From contig OZ241362.1 in assembly GCA_965200315.1 (NCBI GenBank), positions 3,552,001-3,616,000 on the forward strand: 64,000 nt of DNA. Direction: 5' to 3'. Below, in pieces: positions 1,895 to 59,038 of the stretch (the first letter of the stretch is position 1; every line of letters starts with the position of its first letter). The notes beneath the pieces were generated by a model that saw only the letters and a list, made by a program, of their open reading frames with translations, had not been told where the DNA came from and made no database searches. The stretch comes from Candidatus Latescibacterota bacterium (GTDB lineage Bacteria > Latescibacterota > UBA2968 > UBA8231). Position numbers and translations under genes: made by a program.

Positions 1895-3142
1895 TTAGAA
1901 CAGTTTAAAATTTTCCGCATCCATGCAGTGCGCTTGGTGCATGAGCACGGCGTTCAGCAGTTCTATGGCCAGCCGCGACTCTAAGGTTGCGCCGGCGCGT
2001 ACTCCCACGCAGGGATCGTGGCGTCCCTTGGCGAGTTGGAACTCGATTTCTTCGAGGTCTTTGCGCACGGAATTTTGGGGCCGGGCAATGGTGGCCGTGG
2101 GCTTGAAGCTCAAGCGGCAGACGAGCGGCATACCCGTGGTCACGCCGCCGAGCAGGCCGCCGTGGCTGTTGCTCTGGTAGCCGTCTTTGCGGATGGGATC
2201 GTTGTGCTCGCTGCCACGGCGCAGAGACGAAGCGCGGCCCGTGCCTATTTCGCAGGCTTGCACCGCGTGTAGGCCGCCGAGGCTACCCATCAGGCGCAAC
2301 TTCAGGCTCTGGTATAGCGGCTCGCCGATGAGGGGAGGCACGTTGACGGCCACTACTTCGAGTGCCGCGCCGATCGAGTCCTGCTCCTTGCGAGTCTTGG
2401 CAATCAGCTCGGCGGCTTGGCGAGCGAAATCCCCATCCACCGCACGGAGTGGTCCGCATTCCAATTCGCTTTCGAGGGCGGTACACGTCGCAGGAGACAG
2501 GAGCTGCCCGTCGGCTTCGGCTAGTTCGGCGACTCGGGTCGCTAGGGAGATGCCCGTCTCCAGCGGCCCGACTTGGCAGATCGAAGAGAAAATGGCCGTG
2601 CCAAAGTGCTCGGCCAGATAGAGGCGGGCAATGGTGCCGCCGATGACGTCGGAGATGGTTGAGCGATAGCTGGAACGCCCGCCGCCGCGCACATCGACAA
2701 AGCCCCGCGATTTGTAGTGCTTGACTAAATCGGTATGCCCGGGTCGGACGTGTCCCGACGGCCCGGTGAACTGCTTGTAGTCGTCCGAGCGCTTGGCGGC
2801 CGAGAGCACAGCCGCGGCGATTGGCTCGCCCGTAGTGAAGCCAGCTTCATAGGTGCGCACCGGCGTATCGTCCTCGCTTAGGTGTAAATGCAGAGCCGGG
2901 CCGGATAGGAGCTGGTCGTGATCTTCCGAGTAGAGGCCGGACAGCAGGGCGACTTGGTCGTCCTCTCGCCGGGGGGTGCCTAGCTTGTTGCTGCCGGGGC
3001 GGCGGCGGTCGAGATAGTGCTGGATCTGGGTGCGCTCCACCCACAGGCCGGAGGGACAGCCGAAGACCGTGGTGACAATCGCCGGCCCGTGTGATTCGCC
3101 TGCTCCGGCAACGCCAAAAAGCGGCCCGCCGAGTACTTCCAT
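1895..3142 (-). CDS. aroC: chorismate synthase (divergent, with insertions)
   Basis: GESHG, RPGHTD, RGGGRSSYR, GGLLGG.TTG, FKPT, GRHDPCV motifs. Confidence 0.9.
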   Translation of the reverse strand: MEVLGGPLFGVAGAGESHGPAIVTTVFGCPSGLWVERTQIQHYLDRRRPGSNKLGTPRREDDQVALLSGLYSEDHDQLLSGPALHLHLSEDDTPVRTYEAGFTTGEPIAAAVLSAAKRSDDYKQFTGPSGHVRPGHTDLVKHYKSRGFVDVRGGGRSSYRSTISDVIGGTIARLYLAEHFGTAIFSSICQVGPLETGISLATRVAELAEADGQLLSPATCTALESELECGPLRAVDGDFARQAAELIAKTRKEQDSIGAALEVVAVNVPPLIGEPLYQSLKLRLMGSLGGLHAVQACEIGTGRASSLRRGSEHNDPIRKDGYQSNSHGGLLGGVTTGMPLVCRLSFKPTATIARPQNSVRKDLEEIEFQLAKGRHDPCVGVRAGATLESRLAIELLNAVLMHQAHCMDAENFKLF

Positions 3143-3288
3143 GCCAAAGGCTCCTTTGCCAAGGGATGCAAAAATTTACGGTTTTGCTTGGTGGGCGGCA
3201 ATCGGTGCGTTGCCAGTTGTGGACTAGGGATACAGAAGCGTGGAAGCGGTTTTTTTGTTATTTTTTGAGCAACGCAAAGAGGTGATCA

Positions 3289-4755
3289 ATGGCAACCCAC
3301 GAGAAGAAGCGCGGCGTTCCGAACGGCCGATACAAGAAGATCGAATCCGAGCTGCGCACGGAACTGATCGCGGCTCAAGAACGGTTGCAGCAAGCACGAT
3401 TTCCAACGCTCATCCTCTTGGGTGGTTTCGCTGGCGCAGGTACGAGCGCGGCGAGCAACGCGCTCAGGCAGTGGATGGACTCGCACGGCATTGCGGTGTG
3501 CGCCTTTGAGCCACCGTCCTCAGAAGAGCGCGAGCGCCCGGAGTACTGGCGCTATTGGCTTTCCCTGCCGCCGAAGGGAACCATCGGCATCTACTTGAAC
3601 GGCTGGTACGACCGTCCGCTGTGCGACCTAGCTCATGGGCGCAGCGATGAGGAGGCTTTTGACCGCGCCGCCGATCGTATCGCGGCCTTTGAAAACGCGC
3701 TCGTCGTCGATGGTGCGCTGCTGATCAAGTTGTGGATCCACTTGGACAAAGACGCGCGGCAGCAACGCATTGCGGATTTGGATCAAAACCCGCTGACCCG
3801 CTGGCGGGTGAACGCGAGCGCAAGGGAGGGCTTGCAGTACTACGAAGAGTTCAAACGAGCCGCCGACCGCTTACTGCACAAGACCAACATCAGCGGCACT
3901 CGTTGGCAGGTCGTCGAAGGCAGCGACTCTCGCTACACATTGGCGGTGGGCCGCGCCGTGCGCGACGCCATTCGCCAGCACCTAGGGGAAAAAAAGAGCC
4001 GTCCTAAACTCGTTAGCTCAGACTGGCCGCCCGCGTCCAGCGTACTAGCTCAGTTGGACCTAGAAAAGCGGGTGCCCAAGAAGGAGTACCAAGCCCTGCT
4101 TGAGCGATACCAAGGCCGGCTCTATCGCTTGACTCAGCAGGCGCGCCGCAAAGGCGTTTCGACCGTCTTGGTTTTTGAAGGAGCCGATGCAGCGGGCAAG
4201 GGTGGGGTCATCCAGCGCCTGACCGACGCCCTCGACGCCAGTGTCTATAAGATCATCCAAGTCGCCGCCCCCACGGATGAGGAACACGCCCAACACTACC
4301 TCTGGCGCTTTTGGTGCCACCTGCCGCCCGCAGGCCGAATGGTGATTTTCGACCGCAGTTGGTATGGCCGGGTGCTAGTCGAGCGCGTCGAGGGCTTTGC
4401 CGACGGAGCAGCTTGGCAGCGAGCATACGGCGAAATCAACGATTTTGAGGAGCAGCTAACAGATCACGGTATGGTGGTGGCCAAGTACTGGATTCACATA
4501 GACAAAGACGAGCAACTCCGACGCTTCAAGGCACGTCAGGTGACTCCGCACAAGCGCTGGAAGATCACCGAGGAAGACTGGCGCAACCGAGAGAAATGGG
4601 ACGAGTACGAGGCCGCTGTTGACGACATGGTAGCCCGCACCCACACGACTACTGCTCCTTGGACCTTGGTGGAGGGCAACGACAAACGCTTCGCCCGCCT
4701 CAAGGTCATCGAGACGTTTTGCCAGCAGCTAGAGCAGGCGCTGGCTAGAGGATGA
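3289..4755 (+). CDS. pap: polyphosphate:AMP phosphotransferase (two PPK2 domains)
   Basis: Tandem PPK2 domains; FEGADAAGKGG, DRSWYGRVLVERVEG, KITEEDWRNR. Confidence 0.9.
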   Translation: MATHEKKRGVPNGRYKKIESELRTELIAAQERLQQARFPTLILLGGFAGAGTSAASNALRQWMDSHGIAVCAFEPPSSEERERPEYWRYWLSLPPKGTIGIYLNGWYDRPLCDLAHGRSDEEAFDRAADRIAAFENALVVDGALLIKLWIHLDKDARQQRIADLDQNPLTRWRVNASAREGLQYYEEFKRAADRLLHKTNISGTRWQVVEGSDSRYTLAVGRAVRDAIRQHLGEKKSRPKLVSSDWPPASSVLAQLDLEKRVPKKEYQALLERYQGRLYRLTQQARRKGVSTVLVFEGADAAGKGGVIQRLTDALDASVYKIIQVAAPTDEEHAQHYLWRFWCHLPPAGRMVIFDRSWYGRVLVERVEGFADGAAWQRAYGEINDFEEQLTDHGMVVAKYWIHIDKDEQLRRFKARQVTPHKRWKITEEDWRNREKWDEYEAAVDDMVARTHTTTAPWTLVEGNDKRFARLKVIETFCQQLEQALARG

Positions 4756-6077: not shown

Positions 6078-8432
6078 CTACTTCTCCTGTATCCGCACTG
6101 GCGATGCGGCTAGTCCGTCGGTTTTTATCACCTCTCCGCTTTTGTCGACCTGACCAAATTCCAGCACGCCCGTTGGGCAAGACTGCACACACGCGCTACA
6201 GCGTACGCACTCCGGGTCGGCCATGGGCAGCCCCTTGTTGGCAAAGTTCATAATGTCGATGCCTTGGTGGCACACCGAGGTGCAGACATTGCAGGAGATG
6301 CACTTTTTTTTGTCGGCGAGGATGCGGAAGCGGCTAAAGCGTGCGTAGATGTGCATCAAGGCCGCCAGCGGACAGGCGAAGCGACACCACATCCGGCCGC
6401 TGAAATGCCAGTATAGTCCAACGCCTAAGATGCCGGCCAGCAGCAGATCGACCGACCACACGTAGTTGAGAAAAGTCAGCGGGAAGGGCAGGTTGCCCCA
6501 GTTGGTGCCCTTGCCCATAAATAGCCCCATGTAGGCCCCGTTGATCCAGTGATCGTGCGGCAAAGCCCAGCCGACTAGGCGCAAGATGAGCAGTACGCTG
6601 GCTAGCACCAGTACGACCTGTCCCACTATGTTTACCTTGTTCCACACCATGCCGTGCGGCATCTTGTGCCGGTGCGCGTCGCCCATGGTTTCGGCTAAGG
6701 CACCGCACGAGCAGATCCAGCCGCAGTAAGCCCCTTTGCCCCAGAAGTAGATGATCAACGGGATGATGACGAAGGTCTGCACGAGGCTAATCGCCAGCCA
6801 CCACCACAGCGGCTCACTGGTGAAGACGTTCCAAAAGAACAGCGGCCAAGCGAGGATCAGCCCCAGCGAGCGCCAGTACTCGCGCCCGTGTTCGGCCCAT
6901 TGCGACTCGGGGAACAAGGCATCGGCCATCGGCTTGAGCCAAGCACCCTCGTCGAACCAGCCATTGTACCCGGCCCAAGGCAAAACCAAGTACGGCAGCA
7001 GAAAGAGCGGAATGCACTGAACCGCCATCAGCGTCAGCGTCTGCACCTTGATGTACGGCGTACGCCGTCGCTTTATGCGCTGCAAGCCGAATAGAACGAC
7101 GCACAGGCAATAGGCCAGCGAGTAGTAGAAACTCGGCTGGGTCATCGACACTTGCACCGTGTCCCACAGGGTATGGGCAGCCGTCGGTGCCGCCAAGTTG
7201 AAGGGGAAGAGATCGGCTTGGTCGAACCACTTCTTGACCGGAATGCCCGCATCGGTTTTCCAGTGGTAGATGAAAACCGCCGCCAGCAGGATGAGCCCCA
7301 AAGACAGCCAACGCCGCGGTCGCCATTCGCCGTTGATTTCCACGCCGCTGCGTCTGAAAAAGTCGAGCGGGGCCTCGCGGCCAATCATGGAAAACACCGC
7401 GTCGTTGGGCTGGCTCAGTTCCTCGCCCTCGGCGTCTTTGAGCGCGACTGCGTCTTCTTCGATGCTCAGCACTTGGCTGGCCATCAGCAGGCGGATCGAA
7501 CCCGCTTGACGGCCCTTTTCCATAAAGGCGCCGCTGCTGGTCGTCACCCGCTCGGAAGAAGGAGTATCGACGGCCACGTCGGCCATGGGATCAGCCGCGA
7601 GCATGTTCAGCTTTTCGACGTTTTCGGGCTTGGGGCGAGAAAATTCGGGCTTGCGGTAGGAGACGGTCACGCGCCCGCCGCATTGGGCGATGGCAATGGC
7701 CGCCTCTAAGGCACTGTCGCCGCCGCCAACGACCAGCACGTCTTTGTCGCAGAAGTCAACGGGATCGTGCAAGCGGTTGAAGACCTTGTCCAATTGTTCG
7801 CCCGGCACCCCTAGCTTGCGAAAATTGCCCGAGCGCCCGATCCCTACGATCACGCGGCGAGCTTTGATATTCTCTTGGCGCGGGATCTCCAATTCAAAGA
7901 GGTCTCCCCGCCTTTTTACCTGCTCGACCCGCGCTATCGTCGGCTCGATGCCTTGGGCGAGCGTCTGCTCGTGCAGTTCCTCGATCAGCGGCTCCTTGAC
8001 CTCGGATTTAAAGCGGATCTGCCCGGCTGGCTCCATTTCGGTGGGGTAGGTGTAAATGGGTTTGCCCTTGGGGAAATTGACCAGCGTAGAAAACGGCTCG
8101 GTCGCCTCCAAAAGCACAAATGACAGCCCGGCCTCCCGCGCCTCCAAGGCCGCGGACATGCCGGAAACGCCCGCGCCGACGATCGCCAAATCCAAGACAC
8201 CCTCCTGCCCCTTGCTGCGCTGGAATGCCTCGTCGGCTATGATGTGCTGCACGGCTCGTGCGCCCGTATCGGCTGAAAACTTCAACAGTGGGATTCCGGT
8301 CAAGTCGCCGACGATGTACAGCCCGGGGACATTGCTCTGCCCGTGCTCATCCACCCGCGGCAACTTCTCCACCACGCCGGCTGGCCACCGCAGGTGCAAC
8401 CAGTGTAGATAGCGACTGAGAAAATTGCTCAT
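6078..8432 (-). CDS. TrxB/YpdA-like FAD/NAD(P) oxidoreductase fused to a polytopic NapH/CcoG-type 4Fe-4S membrane domain
   Basis: GAGVSG and GGGDSA Rossmann motifs, several TM helices, CGWICSCG, CRFACP, two CxxCxxCxxxC ferredoxin motifs. Confidence 0.85.
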   Translation of the reverse strand: MSNFLSRYLHWLHLRWPAGVVEKLPRVDEHGQSNVPGLYIVGDLTGIPLLKFSADTGARAVQHIIADEAFQRSKGQEGVLDLAIVGAGVSGMSAALEAREAGLSFVLLEATEPFSTLVNFPKGKPIYTYPTEMEPAGQIRFKSEVKEPLIEELHEQTLAQGIEPTIARVEQVKRRGDLFELEIPRQENIKARRVIVGIGRSGNFRKLGVPGEQLDKVFNRLHDPVDFCDKDVLVVGGGDSALEAAIAIAQCGGRVTVSYRKPEFSRPKPENVEKLNMLAADPMADVAVDTPSSERVTTSSGAFMEKGRQAGSIRLLMASQVLSIEEDAVALKDAEGEELSQPNDAVFSMIGREAPLDFFRRSGVEINGEWRPRRWLSLGLILLAAVFIYHWKTDAGIPVKKWFDQADLFPFNLAAPTAAHTLWDTVQVSMTQPSFYYSLAYCLCVVLFGLQRIKRRRTPYIKVQTLTLMAVQCIPLFLLPYLVLPWAGYNGWFDEGAWLKPMADALFPESQWAEHGREYWRSLGLILAWPLFFWNVFTSEPLWWWLAISLVQTFVIIPLIIYFWGKGAYCGWICSCGALAETMGDAHRHKMPHGMVWNKVNIVGQVVLVLASVLLILRLVGWALPHDHWINGAYMGLFMGKGTNWGNLPFPLTFLNYVWSVDLLLAGILGVGLYWHFSGRMWCRFACPLAALMHIYARFSRFRILADKKKCISCNVCTSVCHQGIDIMNFANKGLPMADPECVRCSACVQSCPTGVLEFGQVDKSGEVIKTDGLAASPVRIQEK

Positions 8433-8463
8433 GTAATCTCTCCTAGGTTTCGCTGTGTATTGA

Positions 8464-9909
8464 TCAGCGCACTAAAGCCATGCCCCGCGCTTGGACAAAT
8501 CCGGCCGCTGGTGCTTCGAGTCGGTATAGGTACGCGCCGCTGGCTACTGGCTGACCGGCGTCGTCGCGCCCGTCCCAAGGCTGCAAGTATAGCCCGGCTA
8601 CTTGGTGTCCGTCCACCAGCAAGCGCACTCGCTGCCCGGCCGCGTTGAACACGCTGAGCCGCACCGGCCCGGTTGCTGGCAGCTCGTACTGGATCAGCGT
8701 CTGCGCGTTGAACGGGTTGGGAAAATTTTGCCGCAGGGCAAAGCTCGTAGGCACGGCGTCAAAGGTTTTGACGACGGTCGCGGCTTGCTCGATGTCCTCC
8801 GCGCTGAGAATTCCCTCGCCCGGCTGCCAGACCTCAGTATCGGGCCAGTAGGCAGTCCAGGCGAACCACATGGCATTGTACGCCGGGACTTGCGCCAATC
8901 GCTGCCCGGCGAGCGGCCCGGCGACGGCTTCTCCGAGCATGTTCCAGCGCGAGCCCGTCTCTGCATCCATAAATTCCACCGGCAGCGACCCCTCGGAATC
9001 TACTCCGTAAAAGCTCAACGGCCTGTCGTCGAGCTGGCTGAAATAGGCCAAGGCCGTATGCGACGCAGCGTCGAATAGGACGACTACGGGATCGCTGCCG
9101 ACGAGATCGTTGATCACCACTCCGTCGGGCATTAGCGCAAAGGGGTACGCTTTGGTCTGGTCATTGCGGCACAACCCCAGCACTAGGTCCTTGGTCTCAA
9201 AGCGATGGTCGAATGCGCCACCGTTGGTCGTGGGTGGGAAGATCAGGTACTCGTGGCTGGTGCGGTAATCGCCGTAAGGGTAGAAGGTGTATTGTCCTTC
9301 ATTGTAGGCTGGTCGCGAGTTATAGTACTCCCAGCCCGTAGTGGCTTGTACCACGGTGGTGCTTGGGTACATCCGCTGCCACAGCGCCCACGTCGTCTCG
9401 ACCACCGGCATCAGTTCCAAGCGGTCGCCGACTTGGGGGCCGTTGATGGCCGTGTAAATCATCTGCGGGTAGAGCGTTTCGTCGTCGCGCCGGTCGTACA
9501 TGACCAAGTTGCTGTTGATCAGCAGCCCCGAGACCCCGAATTCGATTTGCGAGCCATCGCTGTCGGTGGCATTGAAGACTTGGCCGGTGCCCGTAAGCGG
9601 ACACAGGGACACTACGACCGACTGATCGCCAACGCGGTCGTTGATGACCTCGTTCCACCAGCCGATGTTGTGTGGATAGGCCCGTGGTTCGCCGTTGATG
9701 ACGATCCCCATGACCACGTTGTCTTCCTGTACGTAGTTTACTTCGTTCGGTGCCACGAAGGTGGGGTTGGTTAGAGCGGGGATGCCGTCTTTGGGCACTC
9801 CACCAGAGACGAGGTGGCTGGTGAGAAAGCTCGGATCGTTGTAGCGGCCAGCTTCAGCCGGATAGATCGCCACTAGCAATAGCAAAGCAGACAGATAAAC
9901 ATGTCGCAT
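8464..9909 (-). CDS. secreted DUF3179-domain protein with C-terminal FlgD-Ig/sorting domain
   Basis: Signal peptide; GGVPKDGIPAL, CPLTGT, FGVSGLLINSNLVMYDR, WFAW; C-terminal QNFPNPFN...WDGRDDAG...SGAYLYRL. Confidence 0.85.
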   Translation of the reverse strand: MRHVYLSALLLLVAIYPAEAGRYNDPSFLTSHLVSGGVPKDGIPALTNPTFVAPNEVNYVQEDNVVMGIVINGEPRAYPHNIGWWNEVINDRVGDQSVVVSLCPLTGTGQVFNATDSDGSQIEFGVSGLLINSNLVMYDRRDDETLYPQMIYTAINGPQVGDRLELMPVVETTWALWQRMYPSTTVVQATTGWEYYNSRPAYNEGQYTFYPYGDYRTSHEYLIFPPTTNGGAFDHRFETKDLVLGLCRNDQTKAYPFALMPDGVVINDLVGSDPVVVLFDAASHTALAYFSQLDDRPLSFYGVDSEGSLPVEFMDAETGSRWNMLGEAVAGPLAGQRLAQVPAYNAMWFAWTAYWPDTEVWQPGEGILSAEDIEQAATVVKTFDAVPTSFALRQNFPNPFNAQTLIQYELPATGPVRLSVFNAAGQRVRLLVDGHQVAGLYLQPWDGRDDAGQPVASGAYLYRLEAPAAGFVQARGMALVR

Positions 9910-10186
9910 CGGATGCTCCTTTCGCTCCGGTTCTAAGCTCGACTTTATCCAAATTAACCATTTTGTCGTCGTTTCTCCTATTTTACTCCGCGTTTGGTCG
10001 CAGGCTCAGACTCTGTAGGTTAGTCCTGTCTCGTGCCGGATACAGTTTAGCCCCGCGCTGCCCCGTCCTTCCCTCTGCTTTTCAGCCTTGGCACGGATAT
10101 TGCGATTGCTAACGGCGAATGGCCCAACCGTCCCTTTAGTTCGGGCGGCTTGGGAAACTCTACTTCCTAATCTCCGATAGAGCGCC

Positions 10187-10631
10187 ATGGCCGAGTTGGA
10201 TGCCGTTTCCAAACATCTGATCCAAACCTATCCCGCCGACTTCGTCCACTTCGCCCTCCAGCGCGCTGACGTCGAAATCCTCGGAGTACTCGACACCGAA
10301 CAACCCACTGTCGAAGCCCGCCGCACCGACAGTCTCATCCGCGTGCGCATTGACGGCGAGGGTGCCCTAGTCCACTACGAATTTCAAACAGTGCCCGTGA
10401 GGAAGGCATGAAGAAAGGGATCGAACAAGGGATCAAGCAGGGCATTGAGCAAGGGCTCCGACAAAGTATCCAAGAAGTGTTGGCGCTGCGCTTTGATCTC
10501 GGCGCTGTTCAATCTTTCGCCGCGGGCTTGGGGGCATCAACGATGTGCAGCGCCTCAAGCAGTTGCATCGGGCAGCCATACAGGTGCCTAGCCTTGAAGT
10601 CTTTCGCAGCCTGTTAGACGACTTCGCGTGA
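10187..10631 (+). pseudogene. Rpn/PD-(D/E)XK transposase-like remnant (N- and C-termini only)
   Basis: N-terminal RRTDSL...HYEFQT joined directly to GIEQG repeats and a frameshifted C-terminus (RLKQLHRAAI); central part absent. Confidence 0.7.
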
Positions 10632-51767: not shown

Positions 51768-52417
51768 GAGCCTTCTCTATGGCTTCCGGTGTGCCCATTG
51801 GCGGACGCCAAGCGATGGAGCTTGCCCTCCGCCTCCAGCAGGGGGATTATTTGCTCAAAGTACTCGCAGAGCGCGTGTAGGCGGCCATTTTCGGTCGTCA
51901 TTTCCAGCAGTTGTTGCCTAATTTTTAAGTCGAGGCCCGTCATTTGGGCGATCTGAAAGGCGTTTTGCAGAGACCCTACTTCAGCACCCATACCAGTCAC
52001 TTCCTCAAGCTGCTCCACCAGCTTCTCTAGTGCCGCCACGGCCTTAGCCAAAAGCACTGGGTCCGTCGGTTCCTCAGCGTCATCTACGTACTCTACCCAC
52101 GCCTCTAAATAGGGCTTGTCCTCGGCGATATGCGCGATGCGAAAGCGCCGCCCGCCGCGGACGATGACGTTGAGTCGGCCATCGTCAAACTCGTTGAGCA
52201 CTTTGGCCAACAACATCGCGCAACCCACCTCGCCCTGCACCTCGCGGTCTTCCCCCAGAATCATGCCAATGGGCAAGATCTCACCGCGCTCGTCGGCCGT
52301 CCGCACATCGGCGAGCATCTGCTTGTAGCGCGGCTCAAATATGTGCAGGGGCACGATTTGGTCGGGGAAAACGACTATCGGCAGAGGAAAGAGTGGGATC
52401 GGATTGCAATCTAGCAT
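51764..52417 (-). CDS. LON substrate-binding domain protein
   Basis: IPLFPL..VVFP...PLHIFEPRY, DGR..V...G..RF. Confidence 0.88.
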   Translation of the reverse strand: MLDCNPIPLFPLPIVVFPDQIVPLHIFEPRYKQMLADVRTADERGEILPIGMILGEDREVQGEVGCAMLLAKVLNEFDDGRLNVIVRGGRRFRIAHIAEDKPYLEAWVEYVDDAEEPTDPVLLAKAVAALEKLVEQLEEVTGMGAEVGSLQNAFQIAQMTGLDLKIRQQLLEMTTENGRLHALCEYFEQIIPLLEAEGKLHRLASANGHTGSHREGS

Positions 52418-52593
52418 GGGCGCGTCGTGTTGGGTTGGTTGATAAGAGCAAATTAAACCGCCGATACCAGCGAGGGCAAGCGGCGCGGTGGCCCCTGCTA
52501 GGCGTCTTCGATCTGCTGAGACGCAGTGGCGCGGTTGACATTGCCCTAGCGGCGCGACTCATTAAGGAATATCCTCAAGACCGGGACTTGGCT

Positions 52594-54180
52594 ATGGCGC
52601 GCCGCAAGAAAAACGTCCGCAGCGAGATAGAGCGAGCCGCAAACCGCAAAAACCTCCGCAGCCACATCCGCGCCCTCGGTCTCCAATCCGAGGACGAGTA
52701 CCGAGCTTGGTGTCGCAAGCGCGGTTTGGGCGACGGCCTCCACAAGAGCAATCGCCATATCCAAAAGGAGCGCCAGCTCGCACTGCGCCAGCAAGGCGAG
52801 GCCGTGCTCGCCCGCACCCGCCAGCGCACGCGCAGCCCGGCCAACACCATCCGCCAGCTCTACGATCGCACGCTCCCCAAGGGGCGGCTCGGTGCCGACT
52901 ACCTCTACAAGGTTCGCGGTCTCTTCAACGCCTTTCCCAGCGGCCCGGTGCGCCGCGCCTTGCTCGATCTTCTGCTCCAAGCCGTGCGCCGCGCCGACCT
53001 GTTGCGCCTCGACCCCGTCATCCCCGATTTTGGTGCCCATCCGCACAACAACTTCATCGACGGCCTAGCCGCCTTGGCCCGCCATTCAGAAGACTGGGTG
53101 CGCCCCGTGGCCGAGTGGGTGCCGCCGAGCCACAACCCTCGCAAGCAGTTTCACCACCTCGCCTGCCACCTGCTAGCCCGCTATGACGTGCCCGCTTTTA
53201 TGGACGCGGCCTTTTTCACCACGCAGATGCCAGAGGCCGATTTGCACCAGGCGTGGTTCAAACACATCGGCTCGGGGCAAAACATCCGCACCGCCGACCT
53301 GCCCGTCGCCTTGAGCAAGAAGTCGGCCCACTGCTTCCTCGCCGCCCCCAACGACCTCTCCATCGCCCACGCCCTGCGCTGGGGCCAAGTCTTAGGGCAA
53401 GGCGGCAGTCCGACGTTGGCGCGAGCGGTGATTGGCACCCGGCTGGGCCAGTCGTTTGAAAACGAGGACTTTTGGTCCACCGCGATCCTGTTTTTTGCCA
53501 ACAATCCCATGCTCGACCCAGCCCACATCGGCCCCATCGTCGATTTTATTTACAATCAGAAATACGTGCCGCAGCAAATCGTCCTGCCCGGCGGTCGCGT
53601 CGAGCAAGGGCCGCAGCCACAGCCAAACTTCTCGCTGAAGAGCCGCAGCGTTCCCAAGCTGTTGCGCCAAGTTGACGAGTGGCACGAAGCGCTGGCCCGC
53701 GAGGTGCTGCTACCCGATGCAGAGGCCGAGTTGGGCAGAGCTGGTGGCAAAAAGGGGCGCGTCCGGCACATGTCTTGGGGCGCTTCGAGTATCGGCGAGT
53801 TCGAGCAAAAGCAGGAGGACAAGCAACTCGGCGAGACCCTCACTTGGAGCGTAAAGGAGCTGCTCTCCAATCACGAACTGGGAGCCGAGGGCCGCGAAAT
53901 GGGCCACTGCGTCTATACCTACGCCAGGAGTTGCCGCAACGGCAGTACCTCGATCTGGTCCCTCGGCTTAGAGGACGGCAAAGGCCACCGCCACCGCGTC
54001 CTCACCATCGCCGTCGATCCGCGCAGCCGCACCATCACCCAAATCCGCGGCCGCTACAACGTGCTGCCCAACGCCAAAAACAAAAAGAACTTAGAGCGAG
54101 CCTATCAGAAACTGCTGCTCCGTTCTCAGAAGGTGCTCGGGCAGTGGATGAGCCGCGAATTTATCAGCAAGCGCTGCTGA
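52594..54180 (+). CDS. PcfJ-like domain protein
   Basis: C-terminal EL..EG..M.HCV.TY...C..G...IWSL, Q.RG..N. Confidence 0.75.
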   Translation: MARRKKNVRSEIERAANRKNLRSHIRALGLQSEDEYRAWCRKRGLGDGLHKSNRHIQKERQLALRQQGEAVLARTRQRTRSPANTIRQLYDRTLPKGRLGADYLYKVRGLFNAFPSGPVRRALLDLLLQAVRRADLLRLDPVIPDFGAHPHNNFIDGLAALARHSEDWVRPVAEWVPPSHNPRKQFHHLACHLLARYDVPAFMDAAFFTTQMPEADLHQAWFKHIGSGQNIRTADLPVALSKKSAHCFLAAPNDLSIAHALRWGQVLGQGGSPTLARAVIGTRLGQSFENEDFWSTAILFFANNPMLDPAHIGPIVDFIYNQKYVPQQIVLPGGRVEQGPQPQPNFSLKSRSVPKLLRQVDEWHEALAREVLLPDAEAELGRAGGKKGRVRHMSWGASSIGEFEQKQEDKQLGETLTWSVKELLSNHELGAEGREMGHCVYTYARSCRNGSTSIWSLGLEDGKGHRHRVLTIAVDPRSRTITQIRGRYNVLPNAKNKKNLERAYQKLLLRSQKVLGQWMSREFISKRC

Positions 54181-54181
54181 T

Positions 54182-55140
54182 TCAATCCCGCAAGACGGCC
54201 AACGCCTCGGCGACCTCCTGCCCTTTGGCTTCGATAATGTCCATTAGCTCTTCGGGTGTGCGCGTATCCACGACCGGCTTTTTATGAGGATTGACGGCCT
54301 TGAGGTCGTACACCGCATCTTCGATCCGCTTGGCGTCGTTGGCCAGTGCCCTTGCTTCAGCTTTCAACGTCTTGACCTTCGCTTCCGCCTCCTCAATAGC
54401 CTGCTCGTCGCGCGGCTTGGCTTTCTTGAGTTCCCTAAACTGCGCCTTCCACTGAGCCTCCACTTACTCTCCTTGCCGCCAAACGGGGGATTGGTCAGGA
54501 TCACGTCAAAAGCCGGTGGCGCATTGTCGAACAAGCCTCCGTAAATTTCCTGCCCGGTCAAGGTATTGCCGTGCCACAGGCTGGGATCGTCGATGCCATG
54601 CAATACCAGATTGGCCAAAGCGATGGGATAGATGAGGTTTTCCTTTTCCCGGCCATAGAATGTCCGCTGCTTGAGGATGGTCAATTGCTCAGCGGTAGCG
54701 TCGTCCCCCATCCGCTCCCCAATGTGCTCAAAACTCTGGGGCAGAAAGCCGCCGGTGCCGCAGCCGGGGTCGTACACGGTCTCGCCAACGCACGGGTCTA
54801 TCACCTGTACCATCGCTTTGATTACTTGGCGCGGCGTGAAGAACTGCCCGCCGTCGTTGCCCTTCTCGCCCATCTTGAGCAGCAATCCTTCGTAGACCTG
54901 CGAGAGCGCGAAGACATGCGTCGGATCGACTGCCTCGTTAGAGAACTGATGCACTTTATCGAGTACGTCGAGGAAGTTGCGCTCGGTGTCGATTCGGACC
55001 CGCTCGACACCGGTCATAATCTCACTGATGACCTTTTGCCGCGGGGTGGCGTCGGGCACTTCCTTGAGCGCCTTCAGATGCGGCAGTAAGATTCCGTTGA
55101 TGAGTGCCAGAGGAGATCTTTCGGCGTAAGGAGAAATTTG
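54182..55140 (-). pseudogene. hsdM: type I R-M methyltransferase (HsdM) remnants
   Basis: GQFFTPR, DPGCGTGGF, TNPPFGG joined out of frame to C-terminal YDLKAVNP..DTRTPEEL; N-terminus missing. Confidence 0.85.
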
Positions 55141-55144
55141 CAAA

Positions 55145-55336
55145 ATGAACGGTATTACCGCACACTTAGGACAGTTGGACGGATTCATCACCGATGCTCC
55201 TCGTGGCTGGCGCGTCCATCGGCTTTCAGGTGATCGGCAGGGCGAATGGAGCGTTTCGGTATCCGGCAATTGGCGGATCACGTTTGCAGAAGAGAACGGC
55301 TATATCGATCACGTAAACCTGGAGGACTATCACTAA
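55145..55336 (+). CDS. HigB/plasmid-killer type toxin, probably 5'-truncated
   Basis: HRLSGDRQGEWSVSVSGNWRITF...VNLEDYH. Confidence 0.75.
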   Translation: MNGITAHLGQLDGFITDAPRGWRVHRLSGDRQGEWSVSVSGNWRITFAEENGYIDHVNLEDYH

Positions 55337-55641
55337 TGGCTACCGACCCCATCAAGATAAACATGACCCCTTCGCATCCGGGCGACTTCATTCGCACGGA
55401 GGTCATCGAGGAGTTGAGTCTGAGTGTGACAAGGGCAGCCGAGATTTTGGGAGTTCGGCGGGCAACGCTTTCGGACCTGCTGAACGGCAACGCCGCGCTA
55501 TCGCCGGAGATGGCACTGCGCATTGAGAAAGCATTCGGCGTGGGAATGGACATGCTGCTGAGGATGCAGGCTTGGTATGATGCCTCGCAGATGCGCACCC
55601 GTGCAAGCGAGATCAGCATCCGGCGCTATGAACCTGTCTGA
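55336..55641 (+). CDS. higA: HigA family antitoxin
   Basis: HPGDFI, AAEILGV.R.TLS, LSPEMALRIEKAFG, LRMQ..YD. Confidence 0.88.
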   Translation: MATDPIKINMTPSHPGDFIRTEVIEELSLSVTRAAEILGVRRATLSDLLNGNAALSPEMALRIEKAFGVGMDMLLRMQAWYDASQMRTRASEISIRRYEPV

Positions 55642-55675
55642 CCAATGTGGGCAACAAATTAAAAAAGGGGCAGAT

Positions 55676-56092
55676 ATGCCAAGACTCAAGACGTATGATC
55701 TATTTCTGAGCCATGTATGGCGTAGTGCCGAAAATTCCGAATACTACCGCCTTGAGAATCTTCTCTACGAAGCACCGTACTTCTATTGGCGCAATTACTC
55801 AGTTCCAGAGCACGATCCACTGGGAACAAAGACAGATAATGAACTACGTCAAGCACTTGACCGACAAATTGCCCCAGTAAACTGCTTTCTTGTGGTTTCT
55901 GGCATGTACGTGAATCATAGAAAGTGGATTCAGGAAGAGATCAACATCGCCATAGACTACGATAAACCGATTGTTGGCGTTAAGCCTTGGGGTCAAGAAC
56001 GTGTACCGATTGAGGTGCAAAATGCTGTAAAGGAAATGGTTGGTTGGCAAACGAGTAGCATCGTAGATGCTATTCGGAGATGGTCTTTGTAG
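55676..56092 (+). CDS. TIR-like domain protein (ThsB/MTH538/DUF1863 type)
   Basis: YDLFLSH.W, NYSVP, SGMY...KWIQEEI, KPIVGVKPWG. Confidence 0.85.
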   Translation: MPRLKTYDLFLSHVWRSAENSEYYRLENLLYEAPYFYWRNYSVPEHDPLGTKTDNELRQALDRQIAPVNCFLVVSGMYVNHRKWIQEEINIAIDYDKPIVGVKPWGQERVPIEVQNAVKEMVGWQTSSIVDAIRRWSL

Positions 56093-56155
56093 CTAAAAAC
56101 TTGAAAAACCTACGACAGCCCTTGCTACATCATAAGTCGAAAAGGCGGGAAAGAG

Positions 56156-56650
56156 ATGAGCAAAGACAACCTGAATTTGCTGCGCCAGAGTAAAGATGAC
56201 TACGGCACTGAATTTGAGAATCACCTTTTTGACCAGTATAAGCTATATGTCGAAATGGCTGATCGAATCAGTGCACGGCGAATGCTCGCAAACTCGTTTT
56301 TCGTCGGTGTGCATACGACCCTGACTATCGCCTTTACTGTGCTGCTCAAAGAGAAGGTGCTACAGCCTCCCTCGCTTATCTTTGTGCCTTTTGTCTCCTC
56401 GATACTTCTCTGTTATGTGTGGTGGCGCGTCGTGTGTTCGTATCGGCAGCTAAACACGGGTAAGTACAAGGTAGTCCTAGCACTTGAGCAAATGCTACCT
56501 GTTGCTCCGTATGATGCCGAATGGATAGCCTTTGGCGAAGGGAAGGATAGAAAGCTATACCGGCCGCTTACAGATGTAGAAAAGTGGGTGCCGGCATGCT
56601 TTGGTTTGTTGTATGTCTTGTTGGCCGGTATGTTTTACTTCAAGGGATAG
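56156..56650 (+). CDS. small 3-TM membrane protein (resembles RipA/octameric membrane family)
   Basis: QYKLYVEMADRIS.RR..AN.FF, W...SYRQLN.GK..V...E..LP..PY..EW, VEKWVP; three hydrophobic segments. Confidence 0.75.
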   Translation: MSKDNLNLLRQSKDDYGTEFENHLFDQYKLYVEMADRISARRMLANSFFVGVHTTLTIAFTVLLKEKVLQPPSLIFVPFVSSILLCYVWWRVVCSYRQLNTGKYKVVLALEQMLPVAPYDAEWIAFGEGKDRKLYRPLTDVEKWVPACFGLLYVLLAGMFYFKG

Positions 56651-56718
56651 CAAGATGTCGCCAACGGACGGCTGTGAACCTACACTGCTCGCAGCAGACA
56701 CGAAAGGATAGCTGGATT

Positions 56719-57165
56719 ATGAAAGTTTTTATCAGCCATGCCTATACAGATGAGCCGCTTGTCAAGAAAATTGTGGCTAGCCTAGAGGAAGTTGGTCTCG
56801 AAGTATGGGATGCCACCCGCGACGTCCTCCATGAGGCCAATTGGGCCGACGAAGTGGCGCGGGCGTTGGAAGAGTCAAAAGCCATGGTGGTCCTCCTGAC
56901 CGCCGACGCTCTACGTTCAAGTTGGGTACGTCGGGAGATCGAGTATGCTCTTGGCGAACAAAACTATCGCGAACGTCTGATTCCCGTCCTTGCAAGCGAC
57001 CTAGGGGAGCTGAAGAAAGAAGATATTCCATGGATTCTTCGGCGCTTACATATAATTGATATGGGTGAATACGCCAAGGAAGAAGAAGGAATTAGTCAGA
57101 TTGCACAGACACTTCTAGAAAATGATGTCACAAGCTCTCCGCCTCCATCTGCATCAATTGCTTGA
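56719..57165 (+). CDS. TIR_2 domain protein
   Basis: KVFISHA..D, S.WVRREI..AL, LIPVL; AAGGA SD. Confidence 0.88.
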   Translation: MKVFISHAYTDEPLVKKIVASLEEVGLEVWDATRDVLHEANWADEVARALEESKAMVVLLTADALRSSWVRREIEYALGEQNYRERLIPVLASDLGELKKEDIPWILRRLHIIDMGEYAKEEEGISQIAQTLLENDVTSSPPPSASIA

Positions 57166-57168
57166 ATT

Positions 57169-57582
57169 ATGTTGCCAAAGGAAATTTTTCTTTCACATTC
57201 TGACCAAGATCGGCAATTTGTGGAAAGGTTGGTCTCCGTAATGAGGCGGCATGGACTTCCCATCTGGTACAGTCGAACTGATGTACTTGGAGGACAACAA
57301 TGGCATGACGAAATTGGGGAGGCACTTCGGCGCTGCGATTGGTTTGTGCTTGTCTTATCGCCGAGTTCCTTGGAATCCATGTGGGTAAAAAGAGAGATAT
57401 ACTTTGCTCTTAACCAGAACCGCTTTGAAAACAAGATTGTTCCTCTTTTGTACCAACACTGTGCCTACGAGCGACTTTCTTGGACGCTGCACTCCTTTCA
57501 GATGATTGATTTTACACAATCTTTTGAACAGGGGTGTCGCGCCCTCCTACGTGTGTGGGGTTTGGGATACCAAGCAGCGTAA
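57169..57582 (+). CDS. TIR_2 domain protein
   Basis: IFLSHS..D, LVLSP.S..S.WVKREI..AL, IVPLL. Confidence 0.88.
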   Translation: MLPKEIFLSHSDQDRQFVERLVSVMRRHGLPIWYSRTDVLGGQQWHDEIGEALRRCDWFVLVLSPSSLESMWVKREIYFALNQNRFENKIVPLLYQHCAYERLSWTLHSFQMIDFTQSFEQGCRALLRVWGLGYQAA

Positions 57583-57609
57583 TCTCCCAGTTTGATGAGA
57601 ACTTATTCA

Positions 57610-58075
57610 TCACACCTTCCCCGCAAAAGCCTCCCGCAACAGAGCCGACGGCATAGCGTCAATAGCGTCCAACTTTTCTTCCGCTGCCGCTCGCGCCTTC
57701 TCCACTGCTGCCATCTGCTTTTTGAGAATTGCCGCAATTCGCCGCTGCTCTGCAAGCGGCGGGAGAGGAATTTTGCGTTTGAAGAGGTATTCTTGAGGTA
57801 ACCTTTGTTGTCCTACTGAACCAGTGAAATGTTCTGTTGCTTCTAGAAGAACGCTGGGTTGCCGAACGAAGAAGTGTATCCATTCGGCGATTATGTGCTC
57901 GCTTGGGCGGAGAACATGAAACTCCGTCGTGCCAAATCCAATACCATCTAATAAGTCTCGCGCTATCGCGTGTTTTCCGTTCTGCATACAAGGGGTAATT
58001 TTTGCGAAAAGAACATCCCCTTCAACGAAATACGTGTATCCTCTTTTGATCTCACCAAACGGGCGTATGTGTAAC
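57610..58075 (-). pseudogene. hsdS: type I R-M specificity subunit (HsdS) C-terminal half
   Basis: GDVLFAKITPCMQNGK, IPLPPLAEQRRI, LLREAFAG; one TRD only. Confidence 0.8.
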
Positions 58076-58714
58076 TTCGCAGCTCCCAACGGTGATATAC
58101 ACGTCGAAGCCCTCGACGCGAATGATGGTAGGCCCATCGCCGCCTTCGCCGCTGCTGGTGCGCGTTGGACGGCTGGTAAAGTCCTCGCTGAACAGGCGGG
58201 TGGCGTCGGTGTAGTCATAAACGCGGAACATCAGCTTATTGGTCGGTTCATCTATGCGTGTCCCTCGACCTGCTCGCGAGGTATGGGCAAGCCTGTGATA
58301 GCATCTATCGGGTTGCGCTTCATAATGTCGTCTATGGTAAGGCCGGTGTCGTCGAGGTTGACGCGCCCCTTTTGGATTTCGCAGGCGGCCAGATAGCCGT
58401 CCTCAATGCCTTGAACGCTCCATGACGGCGCGAATGGCGGCGTCCTGATAGTAGCGGCGGGTGCCTTCGCCGCCTGAGTAGGGCTGCAATAGAGGGCGAG
58501 CGGCGGGTGATTCGAGGGCAAAACCGATGCCTTGTTCGTACCGGGTACGTAACTCAATCTGGCCGCGCTTGCGACGACCACTGACAGGCTCAACGGCCCC
58601 AGCAGTCTCCTCGCGTCGGATGTGGTCTTCTGTCCAGCCGCGCTTGTGAATGGCCGGATCGATGAGCTTGGCTCTGGTATCGGCTTCGCTGAAGTTCATT
58701 TGTGCCGCGTCCAT
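58076..58714 (-). pseudogene. hsdR: type I R-M restriction subunit (HsdR) stumps
   Basis: SEADTRAKLIDP, RYYQDAAIRAV, QGIEDGYL, KLMFRVYDYTDATRLF pieces spliced together in about 0.64 kb. Confidence 0.8.
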
Positions 58715-58735
58715 TCTGCGCTATCTTGCTCTCGC

Positions 58736-59038
58736 ATGGAAAACACATACTTCGTCCCGACCGACGCCGAGCACATCGCTCGCGAGAAGAACAAGGCCAA
58801 AATGCTGCGCCGCTCCGAGTGGTGGAAGCGCAGACGGGCCGCTGGCCAGTGCCACTACTGCCAGCAGTCGTTTGCCTCCGAGGAACTGACCATGGATCAC
58901 GTGGTGCCCCTCATCCGCGGCGGCCGCACCACCAAATCCAACGTGGTCCCTTGCTGCAAGCACTGCAACAGCCAAAAGCAGCACCGGCTCCCCATCGAAT
59001 GGGCGGCCTATCTAGCGCGGCTGCGCGACGAAAGCTAA
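58736..59038 (+). CDS. HNH endonuclease
   Basis: CHYC, TMDHVVP..RGG, N.V.CCKHCN. Confidence 0.88.
   Translation: MENTYFVPTDAEHIAREKNKAKMLRRSEWWKRRRAAGQCHYCQQSFASEELTMDHVVPLIRGGRTTKSNVVPCCKHCNSQKQHRLPIEWAAYLARLRDES

Follow-up and report, generated by a model that had tools for sequence, protein, structure and literature searches.

A ThsB-type TIR-8xMP gene pair and a tandem pair of TIR_2 genes as putative separate modules in a decayed type I restriction-modification locus of a Latescibacterota bacterium

Introduction

Several described defence systems resemble the locus analysed here. In type V Thoeris, a TIR-made isomer of cyclic ADP-ribose (cADPR), 3'cADPR, triggers ThsF (DUF2270/PF10028), an effector with three membrane helices that is predicted by AlphaFold3 to form a heptameric ring with nucleotide pockets, whereas the effectors of types VII and IV are a SLATT protein (ThsH) and a caspase-like protein (ThsE), respectively, according to the preprint of Yirmiya et al. 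(bioRxiv 10.64898/2025.12.03.692087). The same preprint describes the nomination of new effectors from one TIR cluster found beside known and unknown partners, and lists 18 putative Thoeris candidates as unverified. In the type I Thoeris of Staphylococcus aureus (Sau-Thoeris), capsid is sensed by ThsB1, which brings in the catalytic ThsB2 and whose own active site is dispensable (PMC11312562). Here we describe a cassette of four genes at positions 55676-57582 of a stretch of 64,000 nucleotides (nt), hereafter the window, from Candidatus Latescibacterota bacterium (GCA_965200315.1, contig OZ241362.1, 3,552,001 to 3,616,000). The cassette encodes a ThsB-type TIR, a three-helix membrane protein of the 8xMP/RipA family, and two TIR_2 proteins. 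We consider it probable that it is a composite of two TIR modules lying inside a decayed type I restriction-modification locus, module 1 being formed by the first two genes and module 2 by the last two.

Results

Genes and composition of the cassette

The window carries on its + strand four intact, co-oriented, low-GC genes, separated by gaps of 63, 68 and 3 nt.

ORF1, 55676-56092, + strand, 138 amino acids (aa): stand-alone ThsB-type TIR (Pfam ThsB_TIR, 6.9e-17), proposed to act in module 1 as sensor and signal synthase
ORF2, 56156-56650, + strand, 164 aa: membrane protein (Pfam PF24838 8xMP, 3.9e-38), the proposed effector of module 1
ORF3, 56719-57165, + strand, 148 aa: first gene of the pair (Pfam TIR_2, 2e-24), the proposed sensor or regulator subunit
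ORF4, 57169-57582, + strand, 137 aa: second gene of the pair (Pfam TIR_2, 1.9e-27), the proposed catalytic subunit

The original prediction, which was made from the sequence of the window, had placed four co-oriented, closely spaced, AT-rich and intact open reading frames (ORFs) at exactly these positions. The base composition agrees with it: the GC content is 0.45-0.52 over 55500-57999, against 0.55-0.68 in the flanks, and the 1.9-kb cassette looks foreign. The glutamate that had been noticed at the catalytic position of all three TIRs was likewise found in the W-x-x-x-E motifs of ORF1, ORF3 and ORF4, with the nuance that relatives of ORF3 vary at this position, as described below. Of 29 sequences of the ORF1 family, at least 90% keep the Glu of W-I-x-x-E-I, and ORF4 aligns with AbTir and PdTIR in such a way that its Glu falls on their W..E motif. 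The membrane protein had been likened to the RipA/octameric pore family, and the PF24838 match places it in the family that bears this name, whose octamer remains a putative feature of ORF2.

That the two TIR_2 genes might be truncated ends of longer genes had been raised as a possible objection, and did not hold. Their matches cover positions 1-121 (ORF3, 86.9 bits) and 1-122 (ORF4, 96.6 bits) of the 122 in the Pfam profile, with a cut-off of 28 bits. Both span the whole domain, which shows that neither gene is a piece of a longer one, and the lengths of 53 relatives of each are similar to those of the window proteins. The longest frame of ORF3 begins at 56584 and overlaps ORF2; the Met at 56719 (MKVFISH) is the start common to its orthologues. 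The C-terminal tail of ORF3 is acidic and rich in Ser and Pro.

Comparison with the models of PADLOC (2023 version) gave 9.7e-11 as the best match of ORF1 to a ThsB model. For the three TIRs the matches were to generic models only (ThsB and other TIRs), ORF2 matched none of the 5027 models, and no named PADLOC system had all of its components matched by the cassette. The lack of a SIR2 partner, noted in the original prediction, extends beyond the cassette: no SIR2_2 match was found in the cassette or anywhere in the 5.36-Mb genome, so that the SIR2-SLOG ThsA typical of type I Thoeris is missing. Across the same 5.36 Mb, ORF3 and ORF4 are the only TIR_2 matches and ORF2 is the single copy of 8xMP.

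When compared with four orthologous cassettes (L002, L003, L030 and L006), each of the four genes gave a ratio of nonsynonymous to synonymous substitution rates (dN/dS) between 0.08 and 0.30, and all four are under purifying selection. A scan of the cassette for promoters and terminators yielded nothing above shuffled expectation, and no terminator-like site was found inside the four-gene block.

Association of ThsB-type TIR genes with 8xMP genes

We examined the surroundings of 8xMP genes in a scan with one genome per species, which gave 338 relatives and from which 80 loci were kept. TIRs in these loci were found with local jackhmmer profiles seeded from the three TIRs of the window, all ORFs being searched. 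A TIR-like ORF was located within about 6 kb of 8xMP in 51 of the 80 loci and within 300 nt in 32, in many phyla, and in 23 loci a ThsB-like TIR stood directly upstream of 8xMP on the same strand. On viral contigs of IMG/VR, a ThsB-like TIR adjoined 8xMP in 10 of 11 loci. Over 22 pairs, the pairwise distances of TIR and 8xMP proteins were correlated with r = 0.60, a value that 0 of 2000 permutations reached and to which kinship contributes. As is generic for Thoeris, the cassette encodes a Glu-bearing TIR (ORF1) beside a non-TIR gene (ORF2, 63 nt downstream). By these counts, ORF1 and ORF2 form a conserved, co-inherited pair that extends across domains, phyla and viral contigs.

The partners of 8xMP are not confined to the ThsB type; other loci encode TIR_2, DUF1883-TIR, TIR-STAND-TPR or DUF4062 proteins. 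Pfam confirmed TIR_2 in 8 of 9 partner proteins that had been taken to bear a TIR, and found only an FGE-sulfatase domain in the remaining one (L038). Neighbours in the loci lacking a detected TIR include DUF4062, NB-ARC/AAA_16/STAND/TPR and caspase proteins (28 of 29 such loci; L029, whose gene map is that of L028, was left out). We take DUF4062 to be a TIR-like domain. The search for fused forms of 8xMP found no TIR-8xMP fusion, which is weak evidence either way; the only longer forms were two proteins, P0241 (313 aa) and P0242 (288 aa), with an N-terminal RyR domain or DUF7701. Among plasmids, 35 records carried 8xMP relatives, none of them from B. thuringiensis.

Some of the 8xMP loci have other architectures. 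In Rhodoferax/Albidiferax (L013, 3917-6492) a tight operon encodes, in this order, a 292-aa TIR_2 protein, a protein of 403 aa that has an OmpA domain at its C-terminus, and 8xMP; the spacing from TIR to 8xMP is the same in L017, L018, L020, L021, L026 and L039, the middle gene having been scanned in L013 alone. Actinomycete, cyanobacterial and archaeal loci (L062, L066, L074, L080, L081, L045 and L034-L042) have 8xMP beside FGE-sulfatase-domain proteins and large TIR proteins, the latter being ParA-like-TIR-STAND-TPR and TIR-phosphofructokinase proteins.

Exchange of effector genes beside ORF1-like TIRs

In a phylum sample of 151 genomes, ORF1-like TIRs were found beside 8xMP in six genomes, and one further pair was decayed (L179). 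Closely related TIRs adjoin other genes. At L169 a TIR 56% identical to ORF1 directly precedes a SLATT_1/DUF4231 gene, and at L172 a TIR 42% identical to ORF1 directly precedes a caspase-domain gene. The ORF1 clade therefore also occurs with established Thoeris effectors, and 8xMP fills the slot that SLATT or caspase takes beside an ORF1-like TIR in these loci, with the difference that type VII SLATT proteins have two membrane helices and 8xMP has three. Because the TIR-8xMP pair is conserved, and because relatives of ORF1 adjoin SLATT or caspase genes instead, 8xMP is a candidate effector of the Thoeris type. This effector swapping is the strongest argument that 8xMP is a putative TIR-signal-dependent effector. 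Taken with the linkage of 8xMP to TIR genes, it makes the reading of ORF1 and ORF2 as a predicted Thoeris-like TIR-to-membrane-effector pair a well founded one.

One ORF1-like TIR (L173) had no recognisable partner within 1.5 kb, and L168, which lies at a contig edge, was left out of the judgement of partners. More distant ORF1-like TIRs adjoin Nmad2 proteins at L175 (1489-2587) and L180 (11-2523); L180 also encodes a SLOG-cluster2-ThsB_TIR fusion protein of 438 aa.

Identity of the 8xMP protein

ORF2 belongs to the PF24838 family, scoring 130.8 bits against a cut-off of 30 and covering positions 1-134 of the 136 in the profile. Its hydropathy profile has three hydrophobic segments, of which two lie at 47-64 and 143-164; the middle one, 68-95, is made up of two stretches that overlap (68-90 and 79-95). 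Conserved residues of the family cluster in the N-terminal helix and in the segment 95-146 (Q27-R42 and S95-P146), and the two putative cytoplasmic regions hold 7 and 8 basic residues. Among the best 120 of 802 matches, relatives are 64-91% identical to ORF2 and carry source names from several phyla; one source names the family 'RipA family octameric membrane protein'. ORF2 has no NCBIfam model, and no relative in the PDB was found by sequence or profile below an E value of about 1. Among the papers listed in literature searches, none treated the family under the name 8xMP, none treated it under octameric membrane proteins (Csx28 only), and none was on an octameric RipA structure in a search that included Francisella; a search on DUF2270 returned the Yirmiya preprint only.

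The arrangement is most like that of type V Thoeris, in which a stand-alone TIR also adjoins a small protein with three membrane helices. Membership of ORF2 in the ThsF family PF10028 was rejected, since ORF2 (up to E 10) and nine of its relatives had no match to it. A relationship to DUF2270 was not supported by hhalign either, with a probability of 0.06% for shallow alignments and 0.12% for 64 8xMP against 16 DUF2270 sequences; the ThsF sequences of the preprint were not among the latter, and 8xMP may conceivably be a divergent branch of ThsF. PF10028 was found in none of the 151 phylum genomes and in none of 105 genomes of the family that holds the Bacillus locus L046, and 401 Bacteroidota genomes gave two matches. 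Those two DUF2270 genes encode 230-237 aa and have no TIR-sized partner within 1.5 kb, as judged by size rather than by TIR profiles. A relationship to SLATT was likewise not supported (hhalign against the SLATT protein of L169, probability 0.13%); the sole remaining link is a protein-language-model search, in which a SLATT cluster (0.94) came near the 8xMP clusters (0.96-0.97). By the tests made, module 1 would be a Thoeris-like module whose putative effector family is neither DUF2270 nor SLATT. Module 1 is probably anticipated in the Yirmiya preprint, among whose unverified candidates 8xMP may figure; the terms '3TM' and 'PF24838' do not occur in its running text.

Francisella RipA shares with 8xMP the family name, and both are small cytoplasmic-membrane proteins. 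Its reported role differs in not being defence: it is linked to intracellular growth, with LpxA suppressors.

The tandem pair of TIR_2 genes

Metagenomes scanned with an alignment of the orthologues of ORF3 and ORF4 gave 195 relatives, from which 80 loci were kept. In 71 of these an ORF3-like gene directly preceded an ORF4-like gene; in seven of the other nine no more than about 150 nt separated the ORF4-like gene from the start of the locus, and the last two were typed ORF4+ORF4. Neither 8xMP nor an ORF1-like (ThsB-type) TIR was present in any of the 80. The 112 nearest neighbours of the pair were mostly housekeeping genes (CdsA 8, UppS 6, SecA 4, NusB 4, NrdR 3), with a few HNH, PemK or transposase genes, and no recurrent third partner was seen among them. 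In metagenome contigs the pair was found between uppS and cdsA, 1-5 nt from cdsA, or between nusB and secA (examples of these settings are L101, L112, L113, L124, L134, L145, L151 and others, and L092, L095, L096, L104 and L109). A plasmid search with ORF4 gave one weak record. From these contexts, the TIR_2 pair is an obligate tandem, and it appears to be autonomous from 8xMP and from the ThsB-type TIR. Several contigs also have longer runs of such genes, with three to five TIRs of the ORF3-like and ORF4-like kinds in tandem (L090, 481-2830; L095, 2631-4929; L104; L117).

The two members of the pair differ in conservation. In the ORF4 family, E76 and W72 were invariant in 54 of 54 sequences, whereas the catalytic position of the ORF3 family (E73 in the window), also over 54 sequences, held E 31 times, D 21 times and S twice, with the Trp kept in 36. 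The mean p-distance was 0.53 for the ORF3 family and 0.42 for the ORF4 family, so that ORF3 is the faster-evolving of the two. The pair distances of the two families correlated with r = 0.81, and 0 of 2000 permutations were as high.

This asymmetric conservation matches the division of labour between the two adjacent TIRs of S. aureus type I Thoeris. The S. aureus proteins differ in serving the SIR2-SLOG ThsA of the same operon, and ThsB1 is far larger (41.8 kDa). Unlike the S. aureus pair, the ORF3/ORF4-type pair usually has no effector gene beside it, and this effector-less TIR-TIR pair is the less expected part of the cassette.

Two modules or one system

A natural deletion bears on whether the four genes belong together. 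In G127, a genome of the same genus, the orthologous locus (L165) aligns to the window at 55652-56107 and 56703-57587, and a clean absence of 595 bp (window 56108-56702) removes the whole 8xMP gene. The orthologues of ORF1, ORF3 and ORF4 are intact and directly joined. G127 is thus a natural effector-loss variant. Together with the absence of 8xMP and of ThsB-type TIRs from all 80 pair loci, it makes a separate TIR_2 module, which the original prediction had offered as its alternative, a better reading than one four-gene system. Because the cassette consists of two modules, the interpretation favoured in that prediction, in which the membrane protein is the effector of a Thoeris-like system, is half right: it is supported for ORF1 and ORF2, and not for all four genes as one system.

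The undivided system would be a Thoeris-like one in which all three TIRs feed the single 8xMP effector, the extra thsB genes broadening the phage range; we regard it as unlikely. The order of the four genes, whose conservation the original prediction had proposed to check, is kept in the window, L002, L003 and L030, all of the same lineage, and in L006, which is annotated as Gemmatimonadota, with 73-89% nucleotide identity over the block. The purifying selection on all four genes and the lack of an internal terminator-like site are in keeping with it, 8xMP occurs elsewhere beside TIR_2-type TIRs (L013, L014, L010 and L030), and islands with multiple ThsB proteins are described in the Yirmiya preprint (bioRxiv 10.64898/2025.12.03.692087). 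However, 8xMP is missing from every metagenomic locus of the TIR_2 pair, most TIR-8xMP loci lack the pair, and at least three co-oriented TIRs were present in only 5 of the 80 genome loci. Nor was an ORF3- or ORF4-type TIR present in any of the 11 viral 8xMP loci, which have ThsB-type TIRs only, and G127 retains three intact TIR genes despite having no 8xMP gene. Several observations nevertheless weigh against a strict division into two modules or against its details. Five genomes from two phyla keep the block together, and, since it also has no internal terminator-like site, the modules may cooperate. The housekeeping neighbours of the TIR_2 pair are unlike a defence island, and a non-defence role of the pair is therefore possible. 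The Asp that many ORF3 relatives have in place of the Glu may retain catalytic activity, shared ancestry accounts in part for the correlation of distances in both modules, and 29 of the 80 8xMP loci had no TIR by the local profiles, some of them reaching contig edges.

Two further explanations concern one module each. It is rather improbable that the TIR_2 pair is a toxin-antitoxin-like addiction module, with ORF4 as a NADase toxin and ORF3 as its TIR-fold neutraliser, that hitch-hikes beside the TIR-8xMP pair and a HigBA remnant. The coupling of the two genes is tight (the 3-nt gap in the window), pairs are scattered among housekeeping genes (uppS-cdsA, nusB-secA) without a third partner and occur in tandem arrays (L090, L095), the upstream ORF3 is faster-evolving with a degenerate active site, and another toxin-antitoxin remnant (HigB'/HigA) lies at the start of the cassette. 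Yet the Glu is kept in ORF3 of the window and in 31 of 54 relatives, and toxin-antitoxin behaviour and abortive-infection defence are not mutually exclusive. We know of no TIR-TIR toxin-antitoxin pair that has been described, no search for one having been made. Less credible still is a housekeeping role of 8xMP in the envelope, like that supposed for Francisella RipA, in which its adjacency to TIR genes involves no signalling. The RipA name of the family, the link of Francisella RipA to intracellular growth and LpxA, and the 29 loci without a detected TIR would fit such a role, but the gene is accessory and low in GC, is carried with a TIR on viral contigs, was cleanly deleted in the congener G127, lies inside a restriction-modification locus, and holds the same position as SLATT and caspase effectors beside related TIRs.

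Proposed mechanism

Under the two-module reading, the ThsB-type TIR ORF1 would sense phage infection and convert NAD+ to an ADP-ribose-derived nucleotide. This signal would bind to 8xMP, presumed to form an oligomeric ring with an N-in topology, at its conserved cytoplasmic face, which would be made of the N-terminal helix together with the loop that joins helices 2 and 3. The ring would then breach or depolarise the inner membrane, and the infection would be aborted. In module 2, catalysis and the consumption of NAD+ would fall to ORF4, and the faster-evolving ORF3 would act as a sensor or regulator, either recruiting ORF4 or holding it back, much as ThsB1 serves ThsB2 in Staphylococcus. Where it stands alone, the pair probably depletes NAD+ or produces its own signal; in the window cassette it may additionally feed 8xMP.

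A bolder joint proposal, which we put forward only tentatively and with more doubt than confidence, is that 8xMP is the ring-forming receptor of a TIR-made nucleotide and so defines a further Thoeris type, and that ORF3 and ORF4 are an undescribed, self-sufficient two-TIR immune or addiction module. The effector may then be one unrelated to DUF2270 and SLATT that spans bacteria, archaea and viral contigs. In the TIR_2 module, one TIR may have given up strict catalysis to become a sensor or brake for the other, and in many uncultured soil lineages the module may lie, without a separate effector, among genes of core housekeeping functions.

If ORF1 and ORF2 work as proposed, 8xMP would add a compact, highly conserved membrane effector to TIR signalling, and would be a clean system in which to identify the cADPR-type signal that opens a three-helix ring. 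The occurrence of the same TIR clade with 8xMP, SLATT or caspase, and of a congener with a precise loss of the effector gene, provides a natural experiment. An effector-less obligate TIR-TIR unit whose two active sites are unequally conserved would extend the ThsB1/ThsB2 idea of sensor and catalyst beyond Thoeris, and would show that small TIR modules exist outside defence islands, where discovery pipelines based on islands miss them.

Genomic setting

The cassette is inserted in a type I restriction-modification locus that is decayed in the window genome. The following features surround it.

54182-55281, - strand: decayed type I hsdM, as a fragment at 54364-55281 and a C-terminal tail ORF at 54182-54463 (PADLOC MTase_I, 4.3e-87, profile 123-343/635)
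55145-55336, + strand: HigB-like toxin remnant (Pfam HigB-like_toxin, 5.6e-06, profile 46-91/91, the C-terminal half only)
55246-55641, + strand: HigA-like helix-turn-helix antitoxin gene (Pfam HTH_3, 4.2e-10), 34 nt upstream of ORF1, taken as context of the cassette
57610-58218, - strand: decayed type I hsdS (PADLOC Specificity_I, 2.9e-50)
58252-58714, - strand: remnants of the hsdR N-terminus, as suggested by the translation

In related genomes the cassette occupies the same chromosomal slot, with varying amounts of the restriction system remaining. L030 has long ORFs at hsdM (622 aa), hsdS (211 aa) and hsdR (801 aa), located at 2263-4131 and 7485-10522, with the cassette between hsdM and hsdS; its hsdM ORF is intact, and an extra DUF1883-TIR gene is also present. 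L003 and L002 have lost more of the hsd genes than the window has. Of 22 genomes sampled from the genus, its own included, 2 carried ORF1, as did 14 of the 151 phylum genomes, a sparse distribution from which we conclude that the cassette is accessory.

The HigA-like gene is intact while the HigB-like toxin is truncated, and it is syntenic in L003 and L030; its product could be a leftover regulator of the cassette. The islet is flanked by genes for a 595-aa protein with a C-terminal PcfJ-like domain (52393-54180, + strand) and for a 138-aa HNH endonuclease (58622-59038, + strand), and both regions are syntenic in relatives.

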